DNA of 64,000 bases, from assembly GCA_029256325.1 (NCBI GenBank), contig JAQSYD010000024.1, positions 3,169 to 67,168 on the forward strand. The letters run 5' to 3'. The notes beneath the pieces are model-generated. The model was not told where the DNA came from and searched no databases. It saw only the letters and a program-made list of their open reading frames with translations. The DNA is from Clostridia bacterium. GTDB lineage: Bacteria; Bacillota; Clostridia; Lutisporales; Lutisporaceae. A program made the position numbers and the translations under genes. Shown here one piece after another: positions 4,894 to 62,254 of this stretch (positions are counted from its first letter, which is position 1; every line of letters starts with the position of its first letter).

Positions 4894-5567
4894 TGTATTA
4901 TATACCCCTGTCCTCTTTTAGTTTTTATAAAATCATCTAAACCCATATTCCCCAAGTCCTTGCGCAGCCTGTTTATATTTACAGTAAGCGTATTATCATC
5001 TACAAAGCTTTCATCCTCCCACAGCTTGCGCATTATTTCATCACGACTTACTAACTTACCGTTATTTTTCATAAGTACATATAATATCTTGAATTCATTT
5101 TTGGTAAGTTCAAGCTTTTGCTGCTGATAAAGCACTGTGCTGTCCTTAAGGTTCAACACCACGCCTTGATATTCCAGAATACTTGTGTCCACATCAATAT
5201 AAGAATATGTCCTGCGCAGCAACGCATTTACCTTTGCCAACAATACCTCTAAAGAAAAAGGTTTCTGCACAAAGTCGTCTCCTCCCATATTGACCGCCAT
5301 AATGATATCCATATTTGAATTTCTTGAGGAAATAAAGATGATAGGCACCTTTGAAATCTCTCTGATTTTACCACACCAATAAAAACCATCAAAGGCAGGC
5401 AAATTTATATCTAATAATGCCAAATGAGGCTGATACTCCGTAAAGTCTTCCATCACCTTGCTAAAGTCCTTCACTACAAAACCTTCATATCCCCACTTTT
5501 GTATATTCTCTAATATGATTTCTCTTATCTTAACATCATCTTCAATAATCAGTATCTTAAACATCAA
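4890..5567 (-). CDS. OmpR/PhoB-family response regulator (BceR-like)
   Basis: Receiver domain (ILIIEDD, LLDINLP) followed by a winged-helix C-terminus (LTKNEFKILYVL..., RGQGY). Confidence 0.92.
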   Translation of the reverse strand: MMFKILIIEDDVKIREIILENIQKWGYEGFVVKDFSKVMEDFTEYQPHLALLDINLPAFDGFYWCGKIREISKVPIIFISSRNSNMDIIMAVNMGGDDFVQKPFSLEVLLAKVNALLRRTYSYIDVDTSILEYQGVVLNLKDSTVLYQQQKLELTKNEFKILYVLMKNNGKLVSRDEIMRKLWEDESFVDDNTLTVNINRLRKDLGNMGLDDFIKTKRGQGYIIQ

Positions 5568-5581
5568 ATCCTCCTTTTTGA

Positions 5582-5610
5582 GTGCCAGGCACCTTTTTAT
5601 CAGGTTTTGA
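5582..5610. repeat. REP-like palindromic element, copy 2
   Basis: gtgccaggcacctttttatcaggttttga; intergenic. Confidence 0.7.
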
Positions 5611-5685
5611 ATTAATTCTGCAAATCCTTATATCCACAGGTTTTCTTATGTAAAATTAATCCAGTAATATATAATTATATTATCA

Positions 5686-16955: not shown

Positions 16956-16979
16956 TTCATACCTCCTGCAGCTTCATAT

Positions 16980-17015
16980 CCTGATTCTGTGGTGCCTGGC
17001 ACCATCAAGACAGGA
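16980..17015. repeat. REP-like palindromic element, copy 5 (intercistronic nagA-nagB)
   Basis: cctgattctgtggtgcctggcaccatcaagacagg; it overlaps the last codons of nagA. Confidence 0.7.
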
Positions 17016-18138
17016 TTCGCTTTCCTTCAATAAAAGTTGCCTGAATATCTATATTTTCATCAAAAATGATAATATCCGCTTTTTTACCTGCCTCGATGCT
17101 TCCCAGCTCATTATCTAGACCTAATAACTTGGCTGGATTTATCGTCACTGTTCTGATTACTTGATGAAGGGATAAATCAGTGTTTTCCCACAGATTTTTT
17201 ACTGCCTCGTTCAGTCGCAGTACACTGCCAGCCAATGTGCCGTCCGAAAGCCTTGCTGCTCCTTGCTCTACAGTTACCTGCTGCCCTCCTAAGCTATAAA
17301 CACCATGTTTCATACAGGCTGCCCTCATAGCGTCCGTAATAAGTATCAGCTTATCGCAGGTCTTTGTATTCAGCAAAAGCTTGAACATTGCGGGATGCAC
17401 ATGTATTTTATCCGCAATCAGCTCGCAGTATATATTACTGTTCAGCACCGCAGCTGCCACCCCTGGTTCGCGATGGTTCAAGGCGCTCATGGCATTAAAA
17501 ATATGAGTGGCACTTTCGATGCCTGCTTCTATTGCATCCATAGCTTCCTCATAGGTAGCATTTGAATGACCTATGGAAAAGCGAATAGGACTATGCTGGT
17601 GCATAACCCTTATAAAGTCCATATTACCCTCAATTTCAGGGGCGATGGTTATGATTTTGATGATATCCAAATAGTCTTTAATAAGTTCATAATCAGCCTT
17701 CATAATATGTTCTTCGGCATGAGCACCCTTGCGCAAGGCATTAATAAAGGGTCCTTCCAAATGAGCGCCCAATATTTTGGCTCCGCTTACCTTTGCATGA
17801 GCCTCTCTGCGAATATTATCCAAGGCTTTTTTTATACTTTCCTTATCTAAGGATATGGTTGTGGGTAAAAATCCTGTTACTCCATATCGACACAGTCCTT
17901 TGCGAATGGTTTCTATGGCCTCTTGCTCCCCATCCATGGCATCACAGTCAAAGGCACCATGAATGTGAATGTCTATAAAGCCTGGAGAAACATAACTATT
18001 TTTCGCATCTATCACTTCCGCGTCGTACATGCCATCCACATCATCACATATGGCTGTTATTTTATCATCAAATATCAATACCTTATTTTCAATTACCTGA
18101 TCCCTTGTAATGATCTTTCCATTCACAATTGCTTTCAT
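17005..18138 (-). CDS. nagA: N-acetylglucosamine-6-phosphate deacetylase
   Basis: 377 aa with amidohydrolase motifs (PGFIDIHIHG, HLEGPF, ATHIFNAMS, ITDAM). Confidence 0.93.
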   Translation of the reverse strand: MKAIVNGKIITRDQVIENKVLIFDDKITAICDDVDGMYDAEVIDAKNSYVSPGFIDIHIHGAFDCDAMDGEQEAIETIRKGLCRYGVTGFLPTTISLDKESIKKALDNIRREAHAKVSGAKILGAHLEGPFINALRKGAHAEEHIMKADYELIKDYLDIIKIITIAPEIEGNMDFIRVMHQHSPIRFSIGHSNATYEEAMDAIEAGIESATHIFNAMSALNHREPGVAAAVLNSNIYCELIADKIHVHPAMFKLLLNTKTCDKLILITDAMRAACMKHGVYSLGGQQVTVEQGAARLSDGTLAGSVLRLNEAVKNLWENTDLSLHQVIRTVTINPAKLLGLDNELGSIEAGKKADIIIFDENIDIQATFIEGKRILS

Positions 18139-43153: not shown

Positions 43154-43226
43154 ATCCTTCGGTTCGTCAGGATGAGAGCTGACGCCTCTGCACAAAGTGC
43201 GCGTCATTCTGAACATAGTGAAGGAT
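43154..43226. repeat. Nested imperfect palindromic intergenic element
   Basis: Arms atccttcggttcgtcaggatga and tcattctgaacatagtgaaggat pair over ~20 bp. The loop holds a mini-hairpin gcac-aaa-gtgc. Confidence 0.6.
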
Positions 43227-43494
43227 TTTTCAAAGAATCAGATCCTTTATATTATAAACCTTGCAGCATGGGCATAATCGTCCCCTGCAATTCAAATTTC
43301 ACTAACAAAATACATTGTTTTTACGAAACCTGTCAGTTCTTGTATACATTACTTATATTATCATAATTTACTGTCATAAGCATTATTTTATCCCTTCATT
43401 ATTTCATAAATCCAATGAATGAAAGCGATGGGATTTGAAAGACTAATATTGAAAAGCAGTGTAATAAAGATACATATTGGAAAGGAGTGTTTAG

Positions 43495-43982: not shown

Positions 43983-45278
43983 TTAATTCATCATTCTACA
44001 ATGTGTAGAATCCATAACCTCTACTATAACCTTGTCTGTGATTGTCATACCCCTGTCACTGACTATGCCCAGGTTGCGAATGCTTTCCTCCACCGTTGTT
44101 CCTACTATACCGTTAAGATTTGGAATCACAGAACCATACTTCACATACAGCGCACTCTGTATGGCAGCACCTGCAGCACTGGCCAGCTTGTAGGCACAGC
44201 CTGCCTTGGCTCCATCACAGATCATGCCGCTTAGATTTCCGATCATATTTAGTATGGCACCCTCAATCTGCTTATAGTTAAGGTTCATAAGCCACGCCAC
44301 ACCAGCGGCTGATCCGGTGGATGCAGCCACTCCGCAGCCACATACAGCAGACAATCTTCCTGTATAGTTTTTGATATATGCTGTTACCAAATGACTTATA
44401 GCAAGTGCCCTAGCCAGCCGCTCATCACTTTGAGGGAATTTCTCGTCATAGGCTGCAATAGGCAATATTGCTGTCAAACCATGGTTGCCGCTGCCGTTGG
44501 AGCTCATAACAGGCAGTTTTGCACCTGACATTCTTGCATCAGAGGCTGCTGCCGTCATAATAATGGCTCTATTGATTACATCATCACCTATTATCCCGTC
44601 CTCCACAGCTTTTTGCATAGAATAGCCAACTCCGGCGCCAGTTCTATTTTTTAGCCCTTCCAGACAAATACGCTTATTCATAATAAGCCCGTCCAACAAA
44701 AAGCTTATGTCTTTATAATCAAGCTTCTCCACTTCCTGTATCAATTCCTTAATTGTCAGCTCCGTCAAAAGAGAATGACTGACTGTAGCAATACCATAAT
44801 CCAAATCAACATGCAGAAAAACTTCGTCATTTCTAGAAATATGTACAAACTGATCATGTCTTCCGTTTATGATTACTTTGCATGTGTTGCAGCGGCCTCG
44901 CATACCTACTTCTATATATATCTTATCCGTAGTATCATATACATGAATATTAACATTGCCGCTTTCAACAAGTCTCAATGCTTCTTTCATGCTGTCCCTA
45001 TTTACACTTTCCAAGGCACTTAATCCAAGTTCAGAAGCGCCTCCCGCTATACCCATGCAGGCTGCAGCTAAGAGCCCCACCTGATTTGTACCAGGTATAC
45101 CTACACCCATACCGTTCTTATAGATATTGGGGCTTACAAAAATCTCACAAGCCTCCACCGTCTCGTCCAGAAGTTCTCTCGCCCGAGTGGCAGCCAGCGC
45201 CACCGCCCCGGGCTCAGTACAACCAAGGGCTGGTTTTACTTCAGCTTGCAGTATGTCGATTAGTGCTCTTGAATTCAT
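43983..45278 (-). CDS. UPF0597 / YhaM(CyuA)-family protein (L-cysteine desulfidase-like, serine dehydratase alpha fold)
   Basis: 431 aa with the N-terminal signature VKPALGCTEPGAVALAA and Cys-rich regions (SAVCGCGVA, MICDGAKAGCA). Confidence 0.85.
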   Translation of the reverse strand: MNSRALIDILQAEVKPALGCTEPGAVALAATRARELLDETVEACEIFVSPNIYKNGMGVGIPGTNQVGLLAAACMGIAGGASELGLSALESVNRDSMKEALRLVESGNVNIHVYDTTDKIYIEVGMRGRCNTCKVIINGRHDQFVHISRNDEVFLHVDLDYGIATVSHSLLTELTIKELIQEVEKLDYKDISFLLDGLIMNKRICLEGLKNRTGAGVGYSMQKAVEDGIIGDDVINRAIIMTAAASDARMSGAKLPVMSSNGSGNHGLTAILPIAAYDEKFPQSDERLARALAISHLVTAYIKNYTGRLSAVCGCGVAASTGSAAGVAWLMNLNYKQIEGAILNMIGNLSGMICDGAKAGCAYKLASAAGAAIQSALYVKYGSVIPNLNGIVGTTVEESIRNLGIVSDRGMTITDKVIVEVMDSTHCRMMN

Positions 45279-45339
45279 TTTTATTCCTCCTCTTTATCTT
45301 ATATATATAATGTAACTTATTTTTATATAGGAATATATT

Positions 45340-45500
45340 CTTTGCTTACTAAGGAACGAATTTGCTTCCGAACGCTTCAACAGCATCAGAAGCCTTGCTT
45401 TGAGGGATGCAGCTTCGGAGTACGACAAAGCAATCTTCTTCAGAGGTATTCCCCTTGGGTCTCTGAAGCTTAGCTCCAGCAAGTTATTCCTTAGGCAAAG
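45340..45500 (-). ncRNA. Conserved ~160-nt multi-stem element, copy 1 (candidate structured leader RNA or structured repeat)
   Basis: About four-fifths identical to 61609..61765. The closing stem CUUUGC/GCAAAG becomes CUUUAC/GUAAAG in copy 2, and the internal hairpins are kept despite sequence change. It lies 60 nt upstream of the CyuA-like start. The strand is inferred only from gene orientation. Confidence 0.45.
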
Positions 45501-45548
45501 TGTTTGGATTTTATTATAATATGACTTCCATAAATACCATTCGCATCA

Positions 45549-46769
45549 TTACTTTATTGTCTTACTAATGAGCTTATCTAAGAATATTGACTTCATTTGC
45601 TTGCTCGCCATAGCTTGTTTCACCGGGGGCAGCTTTAATATTGCTCCCAATATGGCCGCCATTGCCCGATGACTGCCCAAAGCTTTATTGTCAAAAATTA
45701 ATTCCTGCAGTTGTCCTTTTTCAATTGCCATCTGAACAACTCTATGTACAGAATTCACCGGAGTAATGATTTTTTCCAAGCAAATCTCTTCATTTATCAT
45801 AATTTCCTTGTGCTTATTTCCCCACTGGTCCTGATTTTCTATTGTCTCAATAGCTCCTATGGGGCATGCCTTAACACACAAACCGCATTTAGTGCAGCTA
45901 TCTGCATTTATTTTAGGTAAAAAAGCCGTAGTCTGCACCGGATGCAGCATTCCGAACTTACGCGCTGCAATCAAACCTTCACAGCAGCAGCCGCAGCAAT
46001 TACATATGAAGGTAACATCCTGTCTTACATTTTCACCGCATTGTACTAAATTATTTTCATAAGCCAAATGCAAAAGTTCAATACCTTCAGAGGCATCCAC
46101 CTTTCTAGCATAATGATGCTTCACAAGAGAAGCCGCTGTGTTGCCAAAGGTCATACAAATATCCATAGGCGCCTCACAGGCTTTATTCATATGCTCCATC
46201 TTATGTCTGCAGTAGCAGGTGCTTATTCCGATATGCTCCGCTGTCTTGATAATATGACTGGCTCTTTCAAAATCCAGTATCTGAACTTCGTCAGTATTTG
46301 TAAGTACAGCCTCTTGGACGAATACCCTACCCATGCGTGTTTCGGCTGCTAGGAAAAGCTCTTTTATAAAGTCTTCTTCAACATTCATATATTGGTAAAA
46401 AAGCTCTGCTAGAAGCTTCTGATCTATATCATTTCTGGTTCTCATCATGGAAAATTCGAAAAAACCTGCCATAGGAGGGGGAAGCAAATACTGTTGTACG
46501 CCTTTGTTGTCCACATCTAGTAGTATTGCTCTGCTTGCCAGCTGATCCAAAACTTTATGTGCCTCCGATTCGCTGACATTCCATATGCTGCTGGCAGTCT
46601 TGACCGTAAAAGGTTTGATAGGCAATTGTGCAACCAATGCCGCTTCCTTTTCACTGAATAATATGCTCAATATTTTATAAAGGCTTTCTGAGGCCGGAGC
46701 ACCTTGAGGAAATCTGTTAATTCGCTCTTCCAGACTCTTATATGCTGATTTTGCTGCAATATGAGACAT
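45549..46769 (-). CDS. 4Fe-4S cluster-binding protein, unknown function
   Basis: 406 aa with Cys clusters (CYCRHKMEHMNKAC, CNCCGCCCE, CTKCGLCVKACP). Confidence 0.7.
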   Translation of the reverse strand: MSHIAAKSAYKSLEERINRFPQGAPASESLYKILSILFSEKEAALVAQLPIKPFTVKTASSIWNVSESEAHKVLDQLASRAILLDVDNKGVQQYLLPPPMAGFFEFSMMRTRNDIDQKLLAELFYQYMNVEEDFIKELFLAAETRMGRVFVQEAVLTNTDEVQILDFERASHIIKTAEHIGISTCYCRHKMEHMNKACEAPMDICMTFGNTAASLVKHHYARKVDASEGIELLHLAYENNLVQCGENVRQDVTFICNCCGCCCEGLIAARKFGMLHPVQTTAFLPKINADSCTKCGLCVKACPIGAIETIENQDQWGNKHKEIMINEEICLEKIITPVNSVHRVVQMAIEKGQLQELIFDNKALGSHRAMAAILGAILKLPPVKQAMASKQMKSIFLDKLISKTIK

Positions 46770-46970
46770 TTATCCACCTCCTGTACTTTTCCTTGAATAT
46801 AACATAATAGAAGTATCTTGTAAATTAAGAATCTTCGGATTTAAACATCTCTTGTTTACATAACTTTATTGTTCGATATGAGTAAAAATCCAGAATTCCC
46901 AATATTTACACGGCACTTTTTTCGATTTATGTAAAGGGTTTTGTGGCATATTGTCGAATATTATTTGAGC

Positions 46971-47095
46971 TTAGTCATTTTCTAGCAAGCTTGAATAATT
47001 TGCATCTTAATTAGTCAATTTTATCACAAAGTGTACCCAACTCGGGGTAGATTTGGAAATTTGTACGCTGATTAATCAAATTTTTAACAAGCTTA
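46971..47095 (+). promoter_or_regulatory. Three direct repeats (consensus TTAGTCA-A/T-rich-ATAnCAAGCTT) upstream of repeat-protein gene 1
   Basis: Copies start at 46971, 47011 and 47072. The same triplet sits upstream of gene 2. Confidence 0.5.
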
Positions 47096-47119
47096 GCAAA
47101 ATTTTAGGGGGAAACCAAC

Positions 47120-48952
47120 ATGAAAAAGATTCTTGCAATGACCGTTGCTGCTACACTAGTTATGTCATCATCTGTGTATGCTGCTGATGCGGTAATCGTA
47201 GGTTCAAAAGGAGTAGATGTAGTGGCTGCTGCTACCGGCACAACTCCTACACCGGCACCGACGCCGAAGCCAGCACCAAAGCCAGCACCAAAGCCAGCAC
47301 CAAAGCCAGCACCAAAACCAACTCCAAAGCCGGCAACGCCAGCACCAAAACCAGCAACACCAGCTCCAACACCTGTTGATACAGCAACAAAGCTGACCAG
47401 ATTAATTAAATTTGGATCAAAGGGTGCTGATGTTAAGCTAATTCAAACTTTGCTTAACAATAATGGATATACACTTAAAACCGATGGTATATTCGGTAAG
47501 CTGACGCTTAAAGCAGTTAAGAGCTATCAAGGCAAAAATGGCCTTAAGGCCGATGGAATAGTTGGCAAGCTAACTTTTGGAAAATTAAATCCAGTAGTTG
47601 CTGTACCAGCTCCAACTACACCTGTTGATGCTGTATCAACTGCTTCTATTGTAAATGAAGCAGCTGCTTTTGAAAAAGCAATTGCCAAGGATGGTACTTG
47701 GATTATTGCTACTCTTAAAGATTTAACCTTCGATAAAGACCTTGTTTTAACAGGCAATTTAAAGAATGGCAAAAAAGACAAAGTGACTGGTTTAGATTCA
47801 GTGCAACGTAAAATTGCTCTTTACACACAAGACGAAAATAAGAAAGTAACTGCTAGATTTACATTAACAGCACCTAAGCTTACAATCCTAAGTCCTAATG
47901 CTAGAATACAAAGCGGTACCTTTAAGGGTGACCTATATGTTTCAGTATCAGGATTCAAATTGGTAGACGCAGTAGTTGATGGAAATGTATACTTCACAAC
48001 GAAAGATGCTCAAGCAACCTTTGATATGGATGCGAAAAGCAAGGTTACAGGAAAACAAGAATTAGTAGCAGTTGATGCTGTAGCAACAGCTTCCATCGTA
48101 GATAACGCAGCTGCTTTTGAAAAGGCAATTGCCAAGGATGGTACTTGGATTATTTCTACTCTTAAAGATTTAGCTGTTGACAAAGAGCTTGTTATAGAAG
48201 GCGATTTCAGAGATAAAAACGACCCAGCAAAAGATTTTAAGCGCAAAATAGCACTTTATACACAAGATGCTAAAAAAGCTACAACTGGTAGATTTACATT
48301 AGCAGCGCCAAAATTAACTGTAAAAAGCCCAAATGCTACAATTCAAAAAGGAACCTTCAAGGGTGATATTTATGTTTCAGCTCCTGGCTTCAATTTAGTT
48401 GATGCAGTAGTTGATGGAAATATATACTTTACAACGCAAGCAGCGAAAGATACTTTCAAAACAGATGCAACTAGTATAATAACTGGAAAGCAAATACTAG
48501 CAGACGTTGATGCTGTGGCATCAGCTTCCATAGTAAATGATGCTGCTGCTTTTGAAAAAGCAATTAGCAAGGATGGTACTTGGATCATTGCAACTTTAAG
48601 AGATTTAGTAATTGATAAAGCGCTTGTAGTAGAAGGTACATTCTATGATAAGAATGATACAACAAAAGCTTTAAAGCGTAAGATTGGTCTTTATACACAC
48701 AACGATCCAGCTGATAAGAAGTTTGCTACTCACAGCTTTACTCTAACAGCTCCATCCATAACAATAAAGAGCCCAAGCACAACTCTTCAATATGGATTCT
48801 TCAATGGAGATATCTATGTTGAGACTGCTAACTTCAACCTAACCAATATAAAGGTTACCGGAAATGTGTACTTCACTACTCAAGAAGCTAAGGATACATT
48901 TACAATGGTTAACAGTATAGTTACAGGAAAGCAAGAATTAAAGACAAACTAA
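47120..48952 (+). CDS. Secreted cell-wall-associated protein: signal peptide, Pro-rich linker, PG_binding_1-like domain, three copies of an unrecognised ~145-149-aa repeat
   Basis: Signal peptide MKKILAMTVAATLVMSSSVYA/AD, a (PKPA)n linker, a peptidoglycan-binding-like segment (GSKGADVKLIQTLLNNNGY...DGIFG...) and repeats starting at 47624, 48071 and 48506. Confidence 0.85.
   Translation: MKKILAMTVAATLVMSSSVYAADAVIVGSKGVDVVAAATGTTPTPAPTPKPAPKPAPKPAPKPAPKPTPKPATPAPKPATPAPTPVDTATKLTRLIKFGSKGADVKLIQTLLNNNGYTLKTDGIFGKLTLKAVKSYQGKNGLKADGIVGKLTFGKLNPVVAVPAPTTPVDAVSTASIVNEAAAFEKAIAKDGTWIIATLKDLTFDKDLVLTGNLKNGKKDKVTGLDSVQRKIALYTQDENKKVTARFTLTAPKLTILSPNARIQSGTFKGDLYVSVSGFKLVDAVVDGNVYFTTKDAQATFDMDAKSKVTGKQELVAVDAVATASIVDNAAAFEKAIAKDGTWIISTLKDLAVDKELVIEGDFRDKNDPAKDFKRKIALYTQDAKKATTGRFTLAAPKLTVKSPNATIQKGTFKGDIYVSAPGFNLVDAVVDGNIYFTTQAAKDTFKTDATSIITGKQILADVDAVASASIVNDAAAFEKAISKDGTWIIATLRDLVIDKALVVEGTFYDKNDTTKALKRKIGLYTHNDPADKKFATHSFTLTAPSITIKSPSTTLQYGFFNGDIYVETANFNLTNIKVTGNVYFTTQEAKDTFTMVNSIVTGKQELKTN
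47265..47330 (+). repeat. 12-bp coding tandem repeat (PKPA units) in the linker
   Basis: ccaaagccagca is reiterated about 4-5 times in frame. Confidence 0.8.
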
Positions 48953-48961
48953 TAATGTCAG

Positions 48962-48996
48962 AAAAGCCAGGAATTTATTTCCCGGCTTTTTTTTTG
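48962..48996 (+). terminator. Rho-independent terminator of repeat-protein gene 1
   Basis: Stem aaagccagga / tcccggcttt with one mismatch, followed by a T9 run. Confidence 0.75.
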
Positions 48997-49116
48997 CTCA
49001 ATTTATGCTTATAAATTTTACATATTCTATAATCTGAGCTTATTCGACATATTTTTTATATATTAAACTAGTATTTAAGAAGGAAATTTCAGTTTAATGT
49101 CGAATATATATCAAGC

Positions 49117-49250
49117 TTAGTCATTTTATAGCAAGCTTAGATAAATTTGTATCTTGTTTAGTCAATTTTATCACAAAGTGTTACCATTTTTAATATTGGA
49201 GTACTTTTGATGATTTGTGTACTAATTAGTCAAATTTATAACAAGCTAAG
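49117..49250 (+). promoter_or_regulatory. Three direct repeats upstream of repeat-protein gene 2 (paralogous to 46971..47095)
   Basis: Copies start at 49117, 49158 and 49226. The whole ~250-bp upstream region is duplicated from gene 1. Confidence 0.5.
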
Positions 49251-49274
49251 TTAAAATTATAAGGGGGAAACGAA

Positions 49275-51249
49275 ATGAGAAAGCTTTTAGCAATGACACT
49301 TGCTGCTTCATTAGTTTTATCATCAGCTGTATATGCTGCTGATACTATGACAGTAGGTTCAACTGGAGTAGACGTAGTAGCAGCAGCTACTGGTACAACT
49401 CCAACACCAGCACCGGCTCCGAAGCCGACACCAGCTCCAAAACCAACACCAGCGCCGGCTCCAAAGCCAACGCCTGCACCAACTCCAAAGCCAACACCAG
49501 CTCCAGCACCAACTCCTGCTCCAAAGCCAGTAGTAGATGCTGTAACAACAGCTTCATTAGTAAATAATATTGCGGCTTTTGAAAAAGCAATCAGCAAAGA
49601 CGGTACTTGGATCATTACAACACTTAATGATCTGACTACAACCAAAGAACTTGTTTTAGATGGCGAGTTCCATGACAAGAATGATACAGCAAAACCTCTT
49701 AAGCGTAAAATTGGTCTTTACACTCAAGACGAAAATAAGAAAGTTACTGCAAGATTCTCTTTGACAGCTCCAAAGCTGACTATAAAGAGCCCTAACGCTT
49801 TACTACAAAGCAGTACTTTCAATGGCGACATATACGTTAGAGCTGCTAACTTCCAATTAAAAGATACAGTAGTTAACGGAAACGTATACTTCGTTACACA
49901 AGAAGCGAAAGATACTTTCATCATAGATGCTAAGAGCAAAGTAAACGGTCAGCAAATACTTGCTGATGTAGACGTTGTTGCTACAGCTTCATTAGTACAT
50001 GATGCAGATGCTTTTGCAAAAGCACTTAGTGCAGATGGCACTTGGATCATCTGCCCACTAAGAGACTTAACTACTGACAAGAATCTTGTAGTAGAAGGTA
50101 CATTCTATGATAAGAATGATACAACAAAAGCTTTAAAGCGTAAGATTGGTCTTTATACACACAACGATCCAGCAGACAAGAAGAAAGCTACTCATAGCTT
50201 CACTTTAACTGCTCCATCATTGACAATAAAGTGACATATATGTTCGTGCTGATAACTTCAACTTAACAAATACTAAAGTTGTTGGAGATATCTATTTCGT
50301 TACTCAATCCGCGAAGGATACTTTCACAAATACAAACAGTACAGTAGAAGGCAAGCTAATACTTGCAGATGTAGACGTTGTTGCTACAGCTTCATTAGTA
50401 CATGATGCAGATGCTTTTGCTAGCGCAATCGGCAAGAGCGGTACTTGGATAATTGCACCACTAAGAGACTTAACTACTGATAAGGCGCTTGTAGTAAACG
50501 GTACATTCCATGATAAGAATGACCCAGCAAAAGCTTTAAAGCGTAAGATTGGTCTTTATACACACAACAACCCAGCTGATAAGAAGATTGCTACTCATAG
50601 CTTTACTTTAACAGCTCCATCCATAACAATAAAGAGCCCAAGCACAACTCTTCAATATGGATTCTTCAATGGAGATATCTATGTTGAGGCTGCTAACTTT
50701 AACCTAACTAATATAAAGGTTACTGGAAATGTATACTTCACTACTCAAATAGCTAAGGATACATTCACAATGGTTAACAGCACAGTTACAGGCGAAAAAG
50801 TTCTTATGCAACCTGACGTTGTAACATCAGCTTCTTTAGTTGATAATGCAGCTGCATTTGAAAATGGAATCAGCAAAAACGGTGGTTGGATTACTTCAGT
50901 AGTTAGAGACTTGGTAATCAATAACGAGCTTGTTCTAGACGGCGAATTTACAAATAAAGAAAAGCCAGCTCGTAAAATAGCTCTTTACAGCCAAGATGAA
51001 AAGCGTAATGTAACTCGCAGATTCACTTTAACAGCACCAAAGCTTACTGTAAATAGCCCAATGGCTAGAATTCAAGGCGGTATCTTTAAAGGTAATGTTT
51101 ACGTTTCATCAGCTAACTTCCAGTTAGTAAATGCTACAATTGACGGAAACTTAATATTCCTTAACGAAGAAGCTAAGAATACTTTCAGCATGGATGCTAA
51201 CAGCTCAGTAACAGGAGCAATGAATTATTTCAAGCCTAAGGCTGAATAA
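49275..51249 (+). pseudogene. Paralogous secreted repeat protein (signal peptide, Pro-rich linker, four repeat modules) interrupted by a frameshifting deletion in module 2
   Basis: Frame 0 stops at 50234. Translation continues without a start codon in the next frame from ~50233 to 51249. Module 2 is 403 bp against 438-447 bp for the others, and alignment to module 3 shows 38 nt missing after ...ACAATAAAG. Confidence 0.7.
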
Positions 51250-51265
51250 TCATACATAAATAAAT

Positions 51266-51305
51266 AAGACTGCTGACACTGTAAAGTGTCAACAGTCTTT
51301 TATTT
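51266..51305. terminator. Bidirectional terminator between the repeat-protein locus and rnz
   Basis: A 15-bp stem aagactgctgacact / agtgtcaacagtctt with one mismatch, followed by TTTTATTTT. Confidence 0.7.
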
Positions 51306-60510: not shown

Positions 60511-60819
60511 TTAAAATGGAAGTCCAATTATAGCACAGGCTCCAAATAGTAAAAGAAAAAGCAATAGTGGGCTAATAAAAACCAGCATTGTAATGGCGGC
60601 AGCCATATAGCCTGTTCTAAAAAATCTTACTATTAAGAAGCCAAACACACCTAATATGATAAAAGCCATAATTGAAGTGACAATCATAGTATTAGCCACA
60701 TTAGCAATTCCTATTGTTAGCGCATAAGCAACGACTGATATGCCAATACCAATTAGAACCTGTATGATTGTTTTTGGTTTGTTCTCTAAATTATTGGAGT
60801 TGTTTGGATTGTCGTTCAT
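60511..60819 (-). CDS. Small membrane protein, unknown function
   Basis: 102 aa with an Asn-rich N-terminus and three hydrophobic helices. It overlaps the lgt 3' end by 29 nt. Confidence 0.5.
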   Translation of the reverse strand: MNDNPNNSNNLENKPKTIIQVLIGIGISVVAYALTIGIANVANTMIVTSIMAFIILGVFGFLIVRFFRTGYMAAAITMLVFISPLLLFLLLFGACAIIGLPF

Positions 60820-61576
60820 ATCTTTTACCCTTCTTTCCTAATATTAAATTAAATATTTCCTTGCGATTGATATAGATCAAACTGATAACACATAATAGTT
60901 GAAAATCTGTCAGCCCCAGGCTGGAAATCTTCTCCACCCGAATAAACTCTAATAGAAATCGAAAACTCAAATAGCTGTTTAAAAATGTTCTGAATAACTC
61001 ACCAGGCTTAAGCTCCTTCTTCTTTTTCCAAATCAGGAAACAAACCAATGAAAGGTCAAATATAATCTCGTAAACCTGAGTAGGATGCCTAAATATATGA
61101 TCCCCAAAATCCACACCCCAAGGCAATGCTGTAGGTTGTCCATAGCAGCATCCTCTAAGCAGGCAGCCTATACGCCCAACTGCCATAGCAACCGCAACAG
61201 GTATGGCAAGCTGATTCCCCAATCTGTCCTTTATACCGAACATCTTCTTGGCCAGAAACGTTCCTGCCGCACCGCCAATGAGGCCCCCTACAATGGTTCT
61301 TCCTGATAATAGTATATTCAAAGAATCTGGGTTTGAATTCAGTTCATTCCAATAAATAAATATTAAGGGAAGCTTCGCTCCTATGGTCCCTCCAAATATT
61401 GCAAAGATTGCTATATATAATGCATTGGAGCTGCGTATGCCATCCTTCTTTAGCTGCCATACATAAACACCTATGCCTGTAGCGATGGCGATAAGAAGAA
61501 ATACCGGATAAGCTTCTACCGGATACTTGCCAATATAAAATAGTACAGGCTTCAACCCCCATGTTTCATCTAACAT
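60791..61576 (-). CDS. lgt: Prolipoprotein diacylglyceryl transferase
   Basis: 261 aa and polytopic, with an Lgt-like layout and motifs (GGLIGG, GRIGCLLRGCCYG, HPTQVYE). Confidence 0.85.
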   Translation of the reverse strand: MLDETWGLKPVLFYIGKYPVEAYPVFLLIAIATGIGVYVWQLKKDGIRSSNALYIAIFAIFGGTIGAKLPLIFIYWNELNSNPDSLNILLSGRTIVGGLIGGAAGTFLAKKMFGIKDRLGNQLAIPVAVAMAVGRIGCLLRGCCYGQPTALPWGVDFGDHIFRHPTQVYEIIFDLSLVCFLIWKKKKELKPGELFRTFLNSYLSFRFLLEFIRVEKISSLGLTDFQLLCVISLIYINRKEIFNLILGKKGKRYERQSKQLQ

Positions 61577-61608
61577 CGTATATCCTTTCTATTATGTAGC
61601 AATATATT

Positions 61609-61765
61609 CTTTACCTAAGGAACGAATTTGCTTACGATAGCTTCAGTAGCATCAGAAGCCTTGCTTTGTGGGCTGTAGCTCTGGAGTTCAACAAAGCAAT
61701 CTTCTTCAGAGGTATGCCTTTAGGGCAATGAAGCTTTACTCCAGCAAGTTATTCCTTATGTAAAG
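61609..61765 (-). ncRNA. Conserved ~160-nt multi-stem element, copy 2
   Basis: Paralogous to 45340..45500 in the same orientation relative to the downstream gene. It lies 33 nt upstream of the lgt start and 22 nt downstream of the DUF4395 stop. Confidence 0.45.
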
Positions 61766-61786
61766 TGTTTGTTATTTTATATGTTC

Positions 61787-62254
61787 TTAACTGCTTTGAT
61801 ATTTCTTAACCTTCTTACCTACTCTGCAGCATTGTCCATTTGGGTTATTCAAACAAGAGTATAGCTTCATTGCACCACAATAGCCCATAGCACCGGAGGT
61901 TTTAAGCAAAGCCAGTATGCCTGTTATGATCCAGCCTGTCAGGGGATGTATAAAGTATAAAAATATCAAGGCGATCCCCGAAAATACAGCGCCTACAATG
62001 TGTGCAAATCTTACTGCTCTTTCATCCAGTATAATCCTTTTTGATTTGATAAAATAATCTGCAGTTCGTGTAAATAACATAACCAATGGTGCTTTCTTTA
62101 CCTTAAATATTGCTGATAAAACCAATATTGCAAAGCATATACCTACCAGAAGCTTACTCTGCACGATTATGGAAAGCCATAGCAAGGTTGCAATTCCATA
62201 TTTGCAGAAATTAAAAGCCCCATTGGATACCTCTACCGGTCTATACTCCTTCAT
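61787..62254 (-). CDS. DUF4395-like membrane protein
   Basis: 155 aa with four hydrophobic helices and a Cys-rich C-terminus (YCGAMKLYSCLNNPNGQCC). Confidence 0.6.
   Translation of the reverse strand: MKEYRPVEVSNGAFNFCKYGIATLLWLSIIVQSKLLVGICFAILVLSAIFKVKKAPLVMLFTRTADYFIKSKRIILDERAVRFAHIVGAVFSGIALIFLYFIHPLTGWIITGILALLKTSGAMGYCGAMKLYSCLNNPNGQCCRVGKKVKKYQSS

Follow-up and report, generated by a model that had tools for sequence, protein, structure and literature searches.

A family of structured intergenic repeats, possibly acting on operon mRNA, in a small clade of uncultured Clostridia

Why are two otherwise compact operons of an uncultured Clostridia bacterium each interrupted by an unusually long gap? 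The gaps lie in a 64-kb stretch of contig JAQSYD010000024.1 (the window, by which we mean the whole stretch of DNA that was analysed), and what accounts for them is a structured element found in both. A preliminary description of the window, made from its letters, had noted two intergenic segments about four-fifths identical, in the same orientation and 30–60 nt upstream of minus-strand start codons. Both statements were confirmed: the cores of the segments, here termed copies A and B, are 84% identical, and the end of the closing stem lies 61 nt from the start codon of a cyuA-like gene (ATG at 45278) and 32 nt from that of lgt (ATG at 61576). The two copies belong to an uncatalogued, lineage-restricted family. 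We tentatively favor the reading that this is a new family of co-transcribed structured intergenic repeats acting in cis on operon mRNA, with the ERIC repeats as closest analogue. The copies, with the nhmmer extents of the conserved unit, and their neighboring genes are:

45328–45512, minus strand: copy A, full unit, between the Fer4 gene and the cyuA-like gene (nhmmer 214 bits; covariance-model core 45349–45494, 170.7 bits)
61597–61777, minus strand: copy B, full unit, between the DUF4395 gene and lgt (nhmmer 189 bits; covariance-model core 61615–61759, 170.9 bits)
43983–45278, minus strand: cyuA-like gene, downstream of copy A (L-cysteine desulfidase family, SDH_alpha domain; PF03313, E = 2e-58)
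45549–46769, minus strand: 4Fe-4S (Fer4) protein gene, the cistron upstream of copy A; 27–36 nt from cyuA in sister species
60791–61576, minus strand: lgt, prolipoprotein diacylglyceryl transferase, downstream of copy B (PF01790, E = 3e-38)
61787–62254, minus strand: DUF4395 gene, the cistron upstream of copy B; abuts or overlaps lgt in sister species

The gene orders around the copies are Fer4 > element > cyuA-like and radical-SAM > ICMT > DUF4395 > element > lgt > alr. With flanks included (45300–45540 against 61570–61810, minus strand, ~245 columns), the mean column identity of A and B was 87%. These are the sole copies within the window. Two conserved 19-mers each occur exactly twice in it, on the minus strand, where chance would give 0.01–0.05 occurrences, and a repeat finder recovered the same A/B pair (families D7, D10 and D15). 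The element is ~165–195 nt long, with a G+C content of 43–51%.

How far does the family extend? We examined contigs encoding identical or homologous CyuA, Lgt or hydrogenase proteins, together with contigs from a metagenome scan, all designated by L-numbers. An uncultured 'Clostridia bacterium' metagenome-assembled genome (MAG) encodes a protein identical to the CyuA-like protein of the window, whose nearest named relatives come from 'Clostridiales bacterium GWB2_37_7', at 87%, and, at 75%, from a Lutisporaceae MAG. In total 16 distinct full-length copies were found, plus remnants, at three loci in approximately five related uncultured Clostridia. The element is restricted to a small clade of uncultured Clostridia near GWB2_37_7 and Lutisporaceae, within which its presence varies between related genomes at orthologous junctions. 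Occupancy of the two operon junctions, with protein identity to the window in parentheses, was:

Fer4–cyuA, window: one copy
Fer4–cyuA, L002 and L003 (CyuA 100%): two tandem copies
Fer4–cyuA, L067 (91%): two copies and a 3' fragment
Fer4–cyuA, L068–L072 (88%): two tandem copies
Fer4–cyuA, L059–L062 (GWB2_37_7, 87%) and L073, L074 (88%): a 65–70-nt 3' remnant only, with differing breakpoints
Fer4–cyuA, L063 (83%) and L065 (75%): element absent, genes 27–36 nt apart
DUF4395–lgt, window and L007 (Lgt 93%): one copy
DUF4395–lgt, L076–L085 (83%): two copies
DUF4395–lgt, L086/L087 (82%): element absent, 18-nt gap
DUF4395–lgt, L088/L089 (83%): element absent, genes overlapping

With the element present, the Fer4–cyuA gap measures 270–790 nt. 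Since the junctions of sister species are tight or overlapping, both window copies are best explained as insertions into operons.

The third locus, in L009, has one copy on the strand opposite to both neighboring genes, which are a group A6 [FeFe] hydrogenase gene (its 3' end) and an ECF-transporter gene with its own pan motif. In L090/L091 the corresponding gap measures only 138 nt and lacks the element. The family thus appears to have reached at least one new site in opposite orientation. Occupied and unoccupied sites have diverged too far for the element's ends, and with them a target-site duplication, to be located; in addition, ~150 nt of other sequence distinguish the gaps of L009 and L090 (the extra stretch is at 2941–3087 of L009). 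The pan motif itself (RF01749, 44.6 bits) is at 2836–2922 of L009, minus strand, upstream of the gene for the ECF-transporter S component and adjoining the opposite element copy.

Wider searches added little to this distribution. A pattern scan of 185,579 species genomes (ACTTGCTGGAG-N60-90-AAAGCAAGG) returned 49 matches, all of them chance according to nhmmer, and a metagenome pattern scan (~241 million records) returned five, the only real ones being L007 and L009. Viral contigs gave a single match, judged to be chance; blastn found no match among plasmids and phages, and none in 5,426 complete E. coli genomes (word 11, E<=0.01). There is, in these searches, no link between the element and known mobile-element collections. 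A covariance model built from 14 copies was run over 261 kb (the window plus related loci) and found only the copies at already known loci. Dozens of copies in random orientation, which the preliminary description would have taken to indicate a MITE (miniature transposable element with inverted repeats) or a REP-type repeat, were therefore not seen; the family looks low-copy.

Is it a known RNA, or a small gene? It had initially been matched to no known riboswitch or leader, and this was borne out by Rfam 15: no family was matched in the whole window at gathering thresholds, and at E<=10 the two element regions produced only noise, such as TLS-PK1 (20 bits against a threshold of 80) and BTnc201 (21 bits against 105, on the wrong strand). 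On the related loci Rfam likewise found nothing for the element, only the unrelated pan motif. A protein-coding mini-gene was considered and rejected, because a 62-aa open reading frame with a TTG start (45294–45482, minus strand) overlaps copy A only, without a counterpart at copy B, and the two copies differ by indels of 1 nt and 3 nt.

The copies are conserved far above neutral expectation. Four-fold degenerate sites of the window are 41–45% identical to those of the L067, L068 and L076 species, which is saturation, and 67% identical to those of L007. Yet intact copies from the same three saturated species are 75–88% identical to the window copies. Between species in this saturated state the four-fold values run from 41 to 47%. 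In 12 intact copies, 87 of the 148 core columns are invariant, the share being 74% for paired and 45% for unpaired columns; the upstream flanks of the element are not conserved between loci. This degree of conservation makes a cis-acting RNA role likely still. Moreover, several species have the element at the same two junctions, which is explained more economically by inheritance under purifying selection than by fresh insertions time after time. As a neutral control, the AT-rich stretch that separates element and start codon proved uninformative, shuffled sequences already aligning at ~60%.

What, then, does the element fold into, and on which strand? The proposal of a structured element on the minus strand, forming a family, is supported by the 16 full-length copies and by folding energies against shuffled sequences: z on the minus strand was −4.8 (copy A) and −2.9 (copy B), as against −2.1 for the plus strand of copy A. 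The covariance model scored 170 bits on the minus strand versus 26–35 bits on the plus strand. One-sided changes mostly yield G.U on the minus strand, with a ratio of G.U to A.C events of ~4:1 in intact copies, and a U.G pair of the closing stem, which can pair on the minus strand only, is kept in 10 of 14 copies. The G.U excess weakly supports the minus strand as the RNA strand. In the common fold, 6 + 9 pairs make up the closing stem, which some copies interrupt by a bulge of 3 nt. UUGCU/AGCAA extends the stem by 5 bp, and the hairpin UUGCUUUG/CAAAGCAA forms the apex, its 23-nt loop carrying a conserved sequence. Between extension and apical hairpin are four conserved segments, a to d, that can pair in two mutually exclusive ways: a:b with c:d forms a 4-way junction, and a:d with b:c forms a rod (GCUUCA with UGAAGC, AGAAG with CUUCU). 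In copy A the parts are:

45486–45500, minus strand: closing stem P1, 5' strand (CUUUGC + CUAAGGAAU), paired with 45340–45357
45340–45357, minus strand: closing stem P1, 3' strand (GUUCCUUAG-UAA-GCAAAG), with the 3-nt bulge UAA at 45346–45348
45478–45482, minus strand: extension P1b, 5' strand (UUGCU), paired with AGCAA; G-C to U-A double change in L067 copy 2
45362–45366, minus strand: extension P1b, 3' strand (AGCAA)
45464–45469, minus strand: segment a (GCUUCA), partner b in the originally described hairpin or d in the rod
45435–45442, minus strand: segment b (UGAAGAAG), partner a in the 4-way junction or c in the rod; A-U to G-C double change with c in L068 copy 2
45388–45393, minus strand: segment c (GCUUCU), partner d in the 4-way junction or b in the rod
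45374–45379, minus strand: segment d (UGAAGC), partner c in the 4-way junction or a in the rod
45426–45433, minus strand: apical hairpin P3, 5' strand (UUGCUUUG), loop 45403–45425; U-A to A-U double change in L068 copy 1; 97% of cells paired
45395–45402, minus strand: apical hairpin P3, 3' strand (CAAAGCAA)

The two pairings were compared on the alignment of 14 copies, for which RNAalifold itself chose the rod. The rod leaves 96.7% of cells paired versus 93.3% for the 4-way junction; with partners slid, these values fall to 31–57% and 35–54%. Each pairing has four pairs changed on both sides, a number reached by 1 of 500 shuffles for the rod (mean 1.1) and by none of 500 for the 4-way junction. 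Under constrained folding the rod was lower in energy in 13 of the 14 copies, the exception being copy A, which favors the 4-way junction energetically because its a:b hairpin is extended. The two local hairpins originally proposed, CUUCAGAG/CUCUGAAG and GCUUC/GAAGC, are thus a real pairing option that the rod slightly outperforms. All of the stems first described are present in the sequence, except that CUUCAGAG/CUCUGAAG in its full length is specific to copy A, with CUUCA/UGAAG alone shared. Given the better fit of the rod, the description that suits the element best is a single long, imperfect palindrome bearing a side hairpin.

Compensated pairs were seen within the closing stem (C-G, A-U, U-A), the extension (G-C to U-A), the b:c helix and the apical hairpin (U-A to A-U). 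The change of the closing stem from CUUUGC/GCAAAG to CUUUAC/GUAAAG, first seen between the two window copies, is real, and further copies add G-C/C-G, A-U and U-A variants nearby; across copies the P1 pairs take the forms C-G/A-U/U-A/U-G and G-C/A-U. Real as it is, the covariation is thin: in an alignment covering approximately five species, most pairs show no variation. Several additional pairings were tried and dropped. A GGAG/CUCC pseudoknot had 84% of cells paired, with one compensated change versus five uncompensated G-to-C/U changes. A helix ACUUGCU:AGCAAG, part of the minimum-free-energy fold of copy A, showed no double changes and is broken where P3 is compensated. An outer flank helix AGCAC/GUGCU is not general, being found in L009 only. 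Pairing of UUCCUU in the closing stem with the downstream Shine-Dalgarno sequence (SD) is too weak to compete with the 15-bp closing stem, and an anti-SD model is speculation only.

Does the element have a transcript of its own? Consensus scans of the minus strand beside both window copies found no sigma-70-like promoter and no intrinsic terminator. A promoter-like site does lie upstream of the Fer4 gene (TTTACA-17-TATATT, with TG, 46824–46796), so the simplest view is that the elements belong to polycistronic transcripts. From the closing stem it is 25–45 nt to the SD of the downstream gene, and no obvious switch involves that SD; together with the lack of a terminator, this leaves no obvious expression platform. 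On the plus strand, a promoter-like site at 45492–45520 (TAGGCA-17-TATAAT, 10/12 matches) overlaps the 5' end of copy A and is directed antisense into the Fer4 gene.

Tandem pairs were found at both operon loci, and pair members cluster mostly according to genome, not position. In the tree of copies, which is mixed, tandem partners and some same-genome paralogues group together, and this points to repeated duplication or gene conversion. In two upstream tandem copies, L067_1 and L076_1, several helices are broken without compensation, and the consensus-fold energies of these copies are −2 to −16 kcal/mol, versus −22 to −46 for intact copies. In both of these decaying pairs the gene-proximal copy is still intact. 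Insertions are also found, at one place in the fold. Copy 1 of L003 carries a 27-nt perfect palindrome (GCGTAATACTT-TACA-AGTATTACGC) in the asymmetric loop region (L003 2603–2635), and copy 2 at the lgt locus carries ~105–115 nt with two hairpins (TTTCGCACTT/AAGTGCGAAA and TGAATCGCA/TGCGATTCA) in the same internal-loop region. Among ten contigs from strains with identical Lgt, the longer insertion is present in six (L078, at 464–579, L077, L079, L080, L082 and L084) and absent in three (L076, L081 and L083). No second copy of either insertion occurs in the window or the fetched related contigs.

The 790-nt Fer4–cyuA gap of L067, from farmland soil, is a mosaic. In order it contains ~200 nt with inverted copies of a small repeat (1283–1490), two elements, and a 3' element fragment abutting the cyuA ribosome-binding site. 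This second small repeat family has the consensus ~GGAAAGATTCTTCACTAYGTTCAGAATGAC and may form a short AUUCU/AGAAU hairpin. Its sites are in the window at 43203–43229 (minus strand), upstream of an MBOAT gene, in L067 at 1298–1325, 1366–1393 (inverted), 1674–1706 and 1930–1960, and in L068 at 2150–2180; in L067 and L068 it stands between the tandem element copies.

What kind of element combines these properties? The palindrome, the operon-internal site, occurrence in both orientations, presence/absence variation, tandem duplication, insertion variants, decay and above-neutral conservation together lead us to favor a structured repeat. Of the options first offered for the pair, a structured repeat family fits best, while a classical riboswitch and an independent small RNA are poor fits. 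ERIC, like other MITE-like repeats, is described as an intergenic palindrome that is co-transcribed and can change the stability of mRNA, for instance by creating an RNase E site (Delihas 2011, PMC3184786). The likeness to ERIC (also IRU; ~127-bp imperfect palindromes of Enterobacteriaceae) is broad. It includes the imperfect palindrome spanning the whole element, placement in transcribed intergenic regions, operon interiors among them, in either orientation, locations that vary between related species while the sequence is highly conserved, internal insertions that produce size variants, a low to moderate copy number, and, for ERIC, a reported RNA-level effect on mRNA stability (PMC3184786). 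The element differs in being longer, with an asymmetric loop bearing a side hairpin, in that no TA flanks or target duplication were seen, in its strong tandem tendency, and in coming from a different phylum. As it has no sequence similarity to the E. coli repeats, the resemblance to ERIC is one of function and not of membership.

Other repeat families are further removed. BOX and RUP of pneumococcus, Correia of Neisseria and other bacterial MITEs are likewise small non-coding repeats with terminal inverted repeats, co-transcribed with their neighbors, folding as RNA and present or absent by strain. They run to tens to hundreds of copies per genome, however, against two in 64 kb and three loci here; moreover the element lacks boxA/B/C modules, no IHF or promoter motifs were identified in it, and it is conserved between species well past neutral divergence. 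REP/BIME sequences, which act as intercistronic stabilizers (e.g. malE-malF), share the operon-internal intercistronic position and a presumed role as mRNA barrier, but REPs are 20–40-nt, G+C-rich, clustered hairpins mobilized by RAYT, whereas the element is ~170 nt, multi-helix and low-copy.

If the structured-repeat reading is right, the element would have two lives. As DNA, it would duplicate into intergenic gaps, operon interiors included, readily form tandem pairs, gain insertions in one internal loop, and in some lineages decay or be deleted. As RNA, it would be co-transcribed within the two window operons and fold on the minus strand as one long, imperfect hairpin made up of a closing stem of ~15 bp, four more helices, a small side hairpin and the 23-nt apical loop. 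Placed between cistrons, such a structure could act in cis as a barrier, a processing site or a platform for a binding factor, and might so make the downstream cistron's stability or translation independent of the upstream genes. We infer its transcription, its effects on RNase action and translation, and its mode of spread. Several points weigh against this reading. Copy number looks low, the 64 kb containing two copies and the ~200 kb of related flanking sequence no further one; classical MITE and REP families are far more abundant. Target-site duplication and exact element ends are not definable, and no transposase was noticed near the copies at these loci. Selection and recent spread are not fully separable as sources of the interspecies identity. 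Finally, the invariance of 45% of unpaired positions, and the intact proximal and decaying distal copies of two tandem pairs, fit a sequence-specific regulatory RNA at least as well.

Such an RNA would be a new cis-regulatory leader, a riboswitch or protein-binding RNA controlling the cyuA-like gene and lgt, in which tandem copies sharpen the response. As in tandem riboswitches and multi-helix leaders, there are at least 146 nt, covarying stems, conserved unpaired nucleotides, a variable peripheral region (here accepting both the 27-nt and the ~105–115-nt insertions), and a tandem arrangement directly before a gene's ribosome-binding site that recurs at both loci. Conservation above saturated synonymous sites extends to the unpaired junction and loop sequences GGAAUAAC, GGAAUACC, GAAGAAGAU and AGCUACAGCCC, stem changes are compensated, four conserved segments have two mutually exclusive pairings, and in two tandem pairs it is the proximal copy that stays intact; with no Rfam match, the class would be new. 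A leader is nonetheless rather doubtful. It would need a coherent regulon, and there is no evident theme among a cysteine desulfidase, lgt and an antisense position to a hydrogenase 3' end. It would also need an expression platform, whereas no terminator is present and the SD lies 25–45 nt beyond the closing stem. Tandem riboswitches have a coherent regulon, an expression platform and an Rfam family; the element has none of these, and is instead inserted in tight operons, with decayed and truncated copies. The orthologous operons of sister species are tightly coupled without it, the L009 copy has no downstream gene on its own strand, and two species keep a mere remnant before an intact cyuA. 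Even with the definition widened to any new class of cis-regulatory RNA (orphan riboswitch, protein-binding leader or self-cleaving ribozyme), confined to one clade, single or tandem, switching between rod and 4-way forms and controlling cysteine desulfidase and lgt within operons, we hold it to be a minority view. A new ribozyme class that cuts operon transcripts between cistrons is by itself the most improbable of the alternatives. The family is patchily distributed, occurs in tandem, varies in gene context and orientation, and combines conserved nucleotides at junctions with a variable periphery, all of which is typical of bacterial self-cleaving ribozymes, but no Rfam ribozyme model matched, the GGAG/CUCC pseudoknot is not maintained, and the best consensus is a plain rod and not a compact junction.

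A further alternative is a purely selfish MITE acting at the DNA level, its closing stem serving as terminal inverted repeats for a transposase encoded elsewhere, its fold incidental, and its identity due to recent spread. The ends do form inverted repeats of 15–25 bp (a 15-bp helix, ~25 bp in L009), and same-genome paralogues are often closer than positional orthologues between species; presence/absence between relatives, both orientations, remnants and nested insertions would also follow. Against this, the same junctions are occupied across saturated species, which, unless targeting is site-specific, argues for inheritance and constraint. The inverted repeats covary instead of being fixed, as suits a helix better than a transposase binding site, and the conserved U.G wobble and the G.U excess favor one strand. 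With no target-site duplication or transposase found at these loci, a low copy number, and nothing similar in plasmids, phages or viral contigs, we consider this explanation unlikely. Some small RNA families are known as paralogues and tandem pairs, and a family of independently transcribed small RNA genes acting in trans would accommodate the paralogous, sometimes tandem copies, the stable compact fold of 146–180 nt and the L009 copy standing alone between opposite-strand genes. The absence of a sigma-70-like promoter upstream and of an intrinsic terminator downstream of either window copy makes it a poor candidate; upstream flanks also differ between loci and copies sit inside co-directional operons, so that we rate it as very improbable.

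Should the element prove ERIC-like, the structured-repeat reading would extend the ERIC puzzle to anaerobic Gram-positive bacteria. The puzzle is that of a low-copy intergenic palindrome with shifting locations, whose sequence is steadier than neutral DNA and so implies a function at the RNA level; to our knowledge, that function has never been pinned down for ERIC. Should it instead bind a ligand or protein, cysteine catabolism and lipoprotein maturation would be linked to a regulatory RNA of a new class. The sister species, with the two junctions empty, single, double or decayed, provide a natural experiment in which an effect on downstream expression is directly testable.

Two further sets of repeats were noted in the window. 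The region 47098–51270 has extensive internal direct repeats, with units of ~137–300 nt and a spacing of ~435 nt, that run through genes including one for a 610-aa PG_binding_1 protein (47120–48952). Regions upstream of the repeat-bearing genes are also duplicated (46949–47039 and 49095–49254), and the arrangement suggests that the genes encode paralogous repeat-domain cell-wall proteins. Elsewhere, a 47-nt sequence centered on the palindrome GGTGCCAGGCACC occurs three times, at 966–1012, 5565–5611 and 16975–17021, with 64–85% identity to the reference copy; these copies could be shared terminators or another small repeat.

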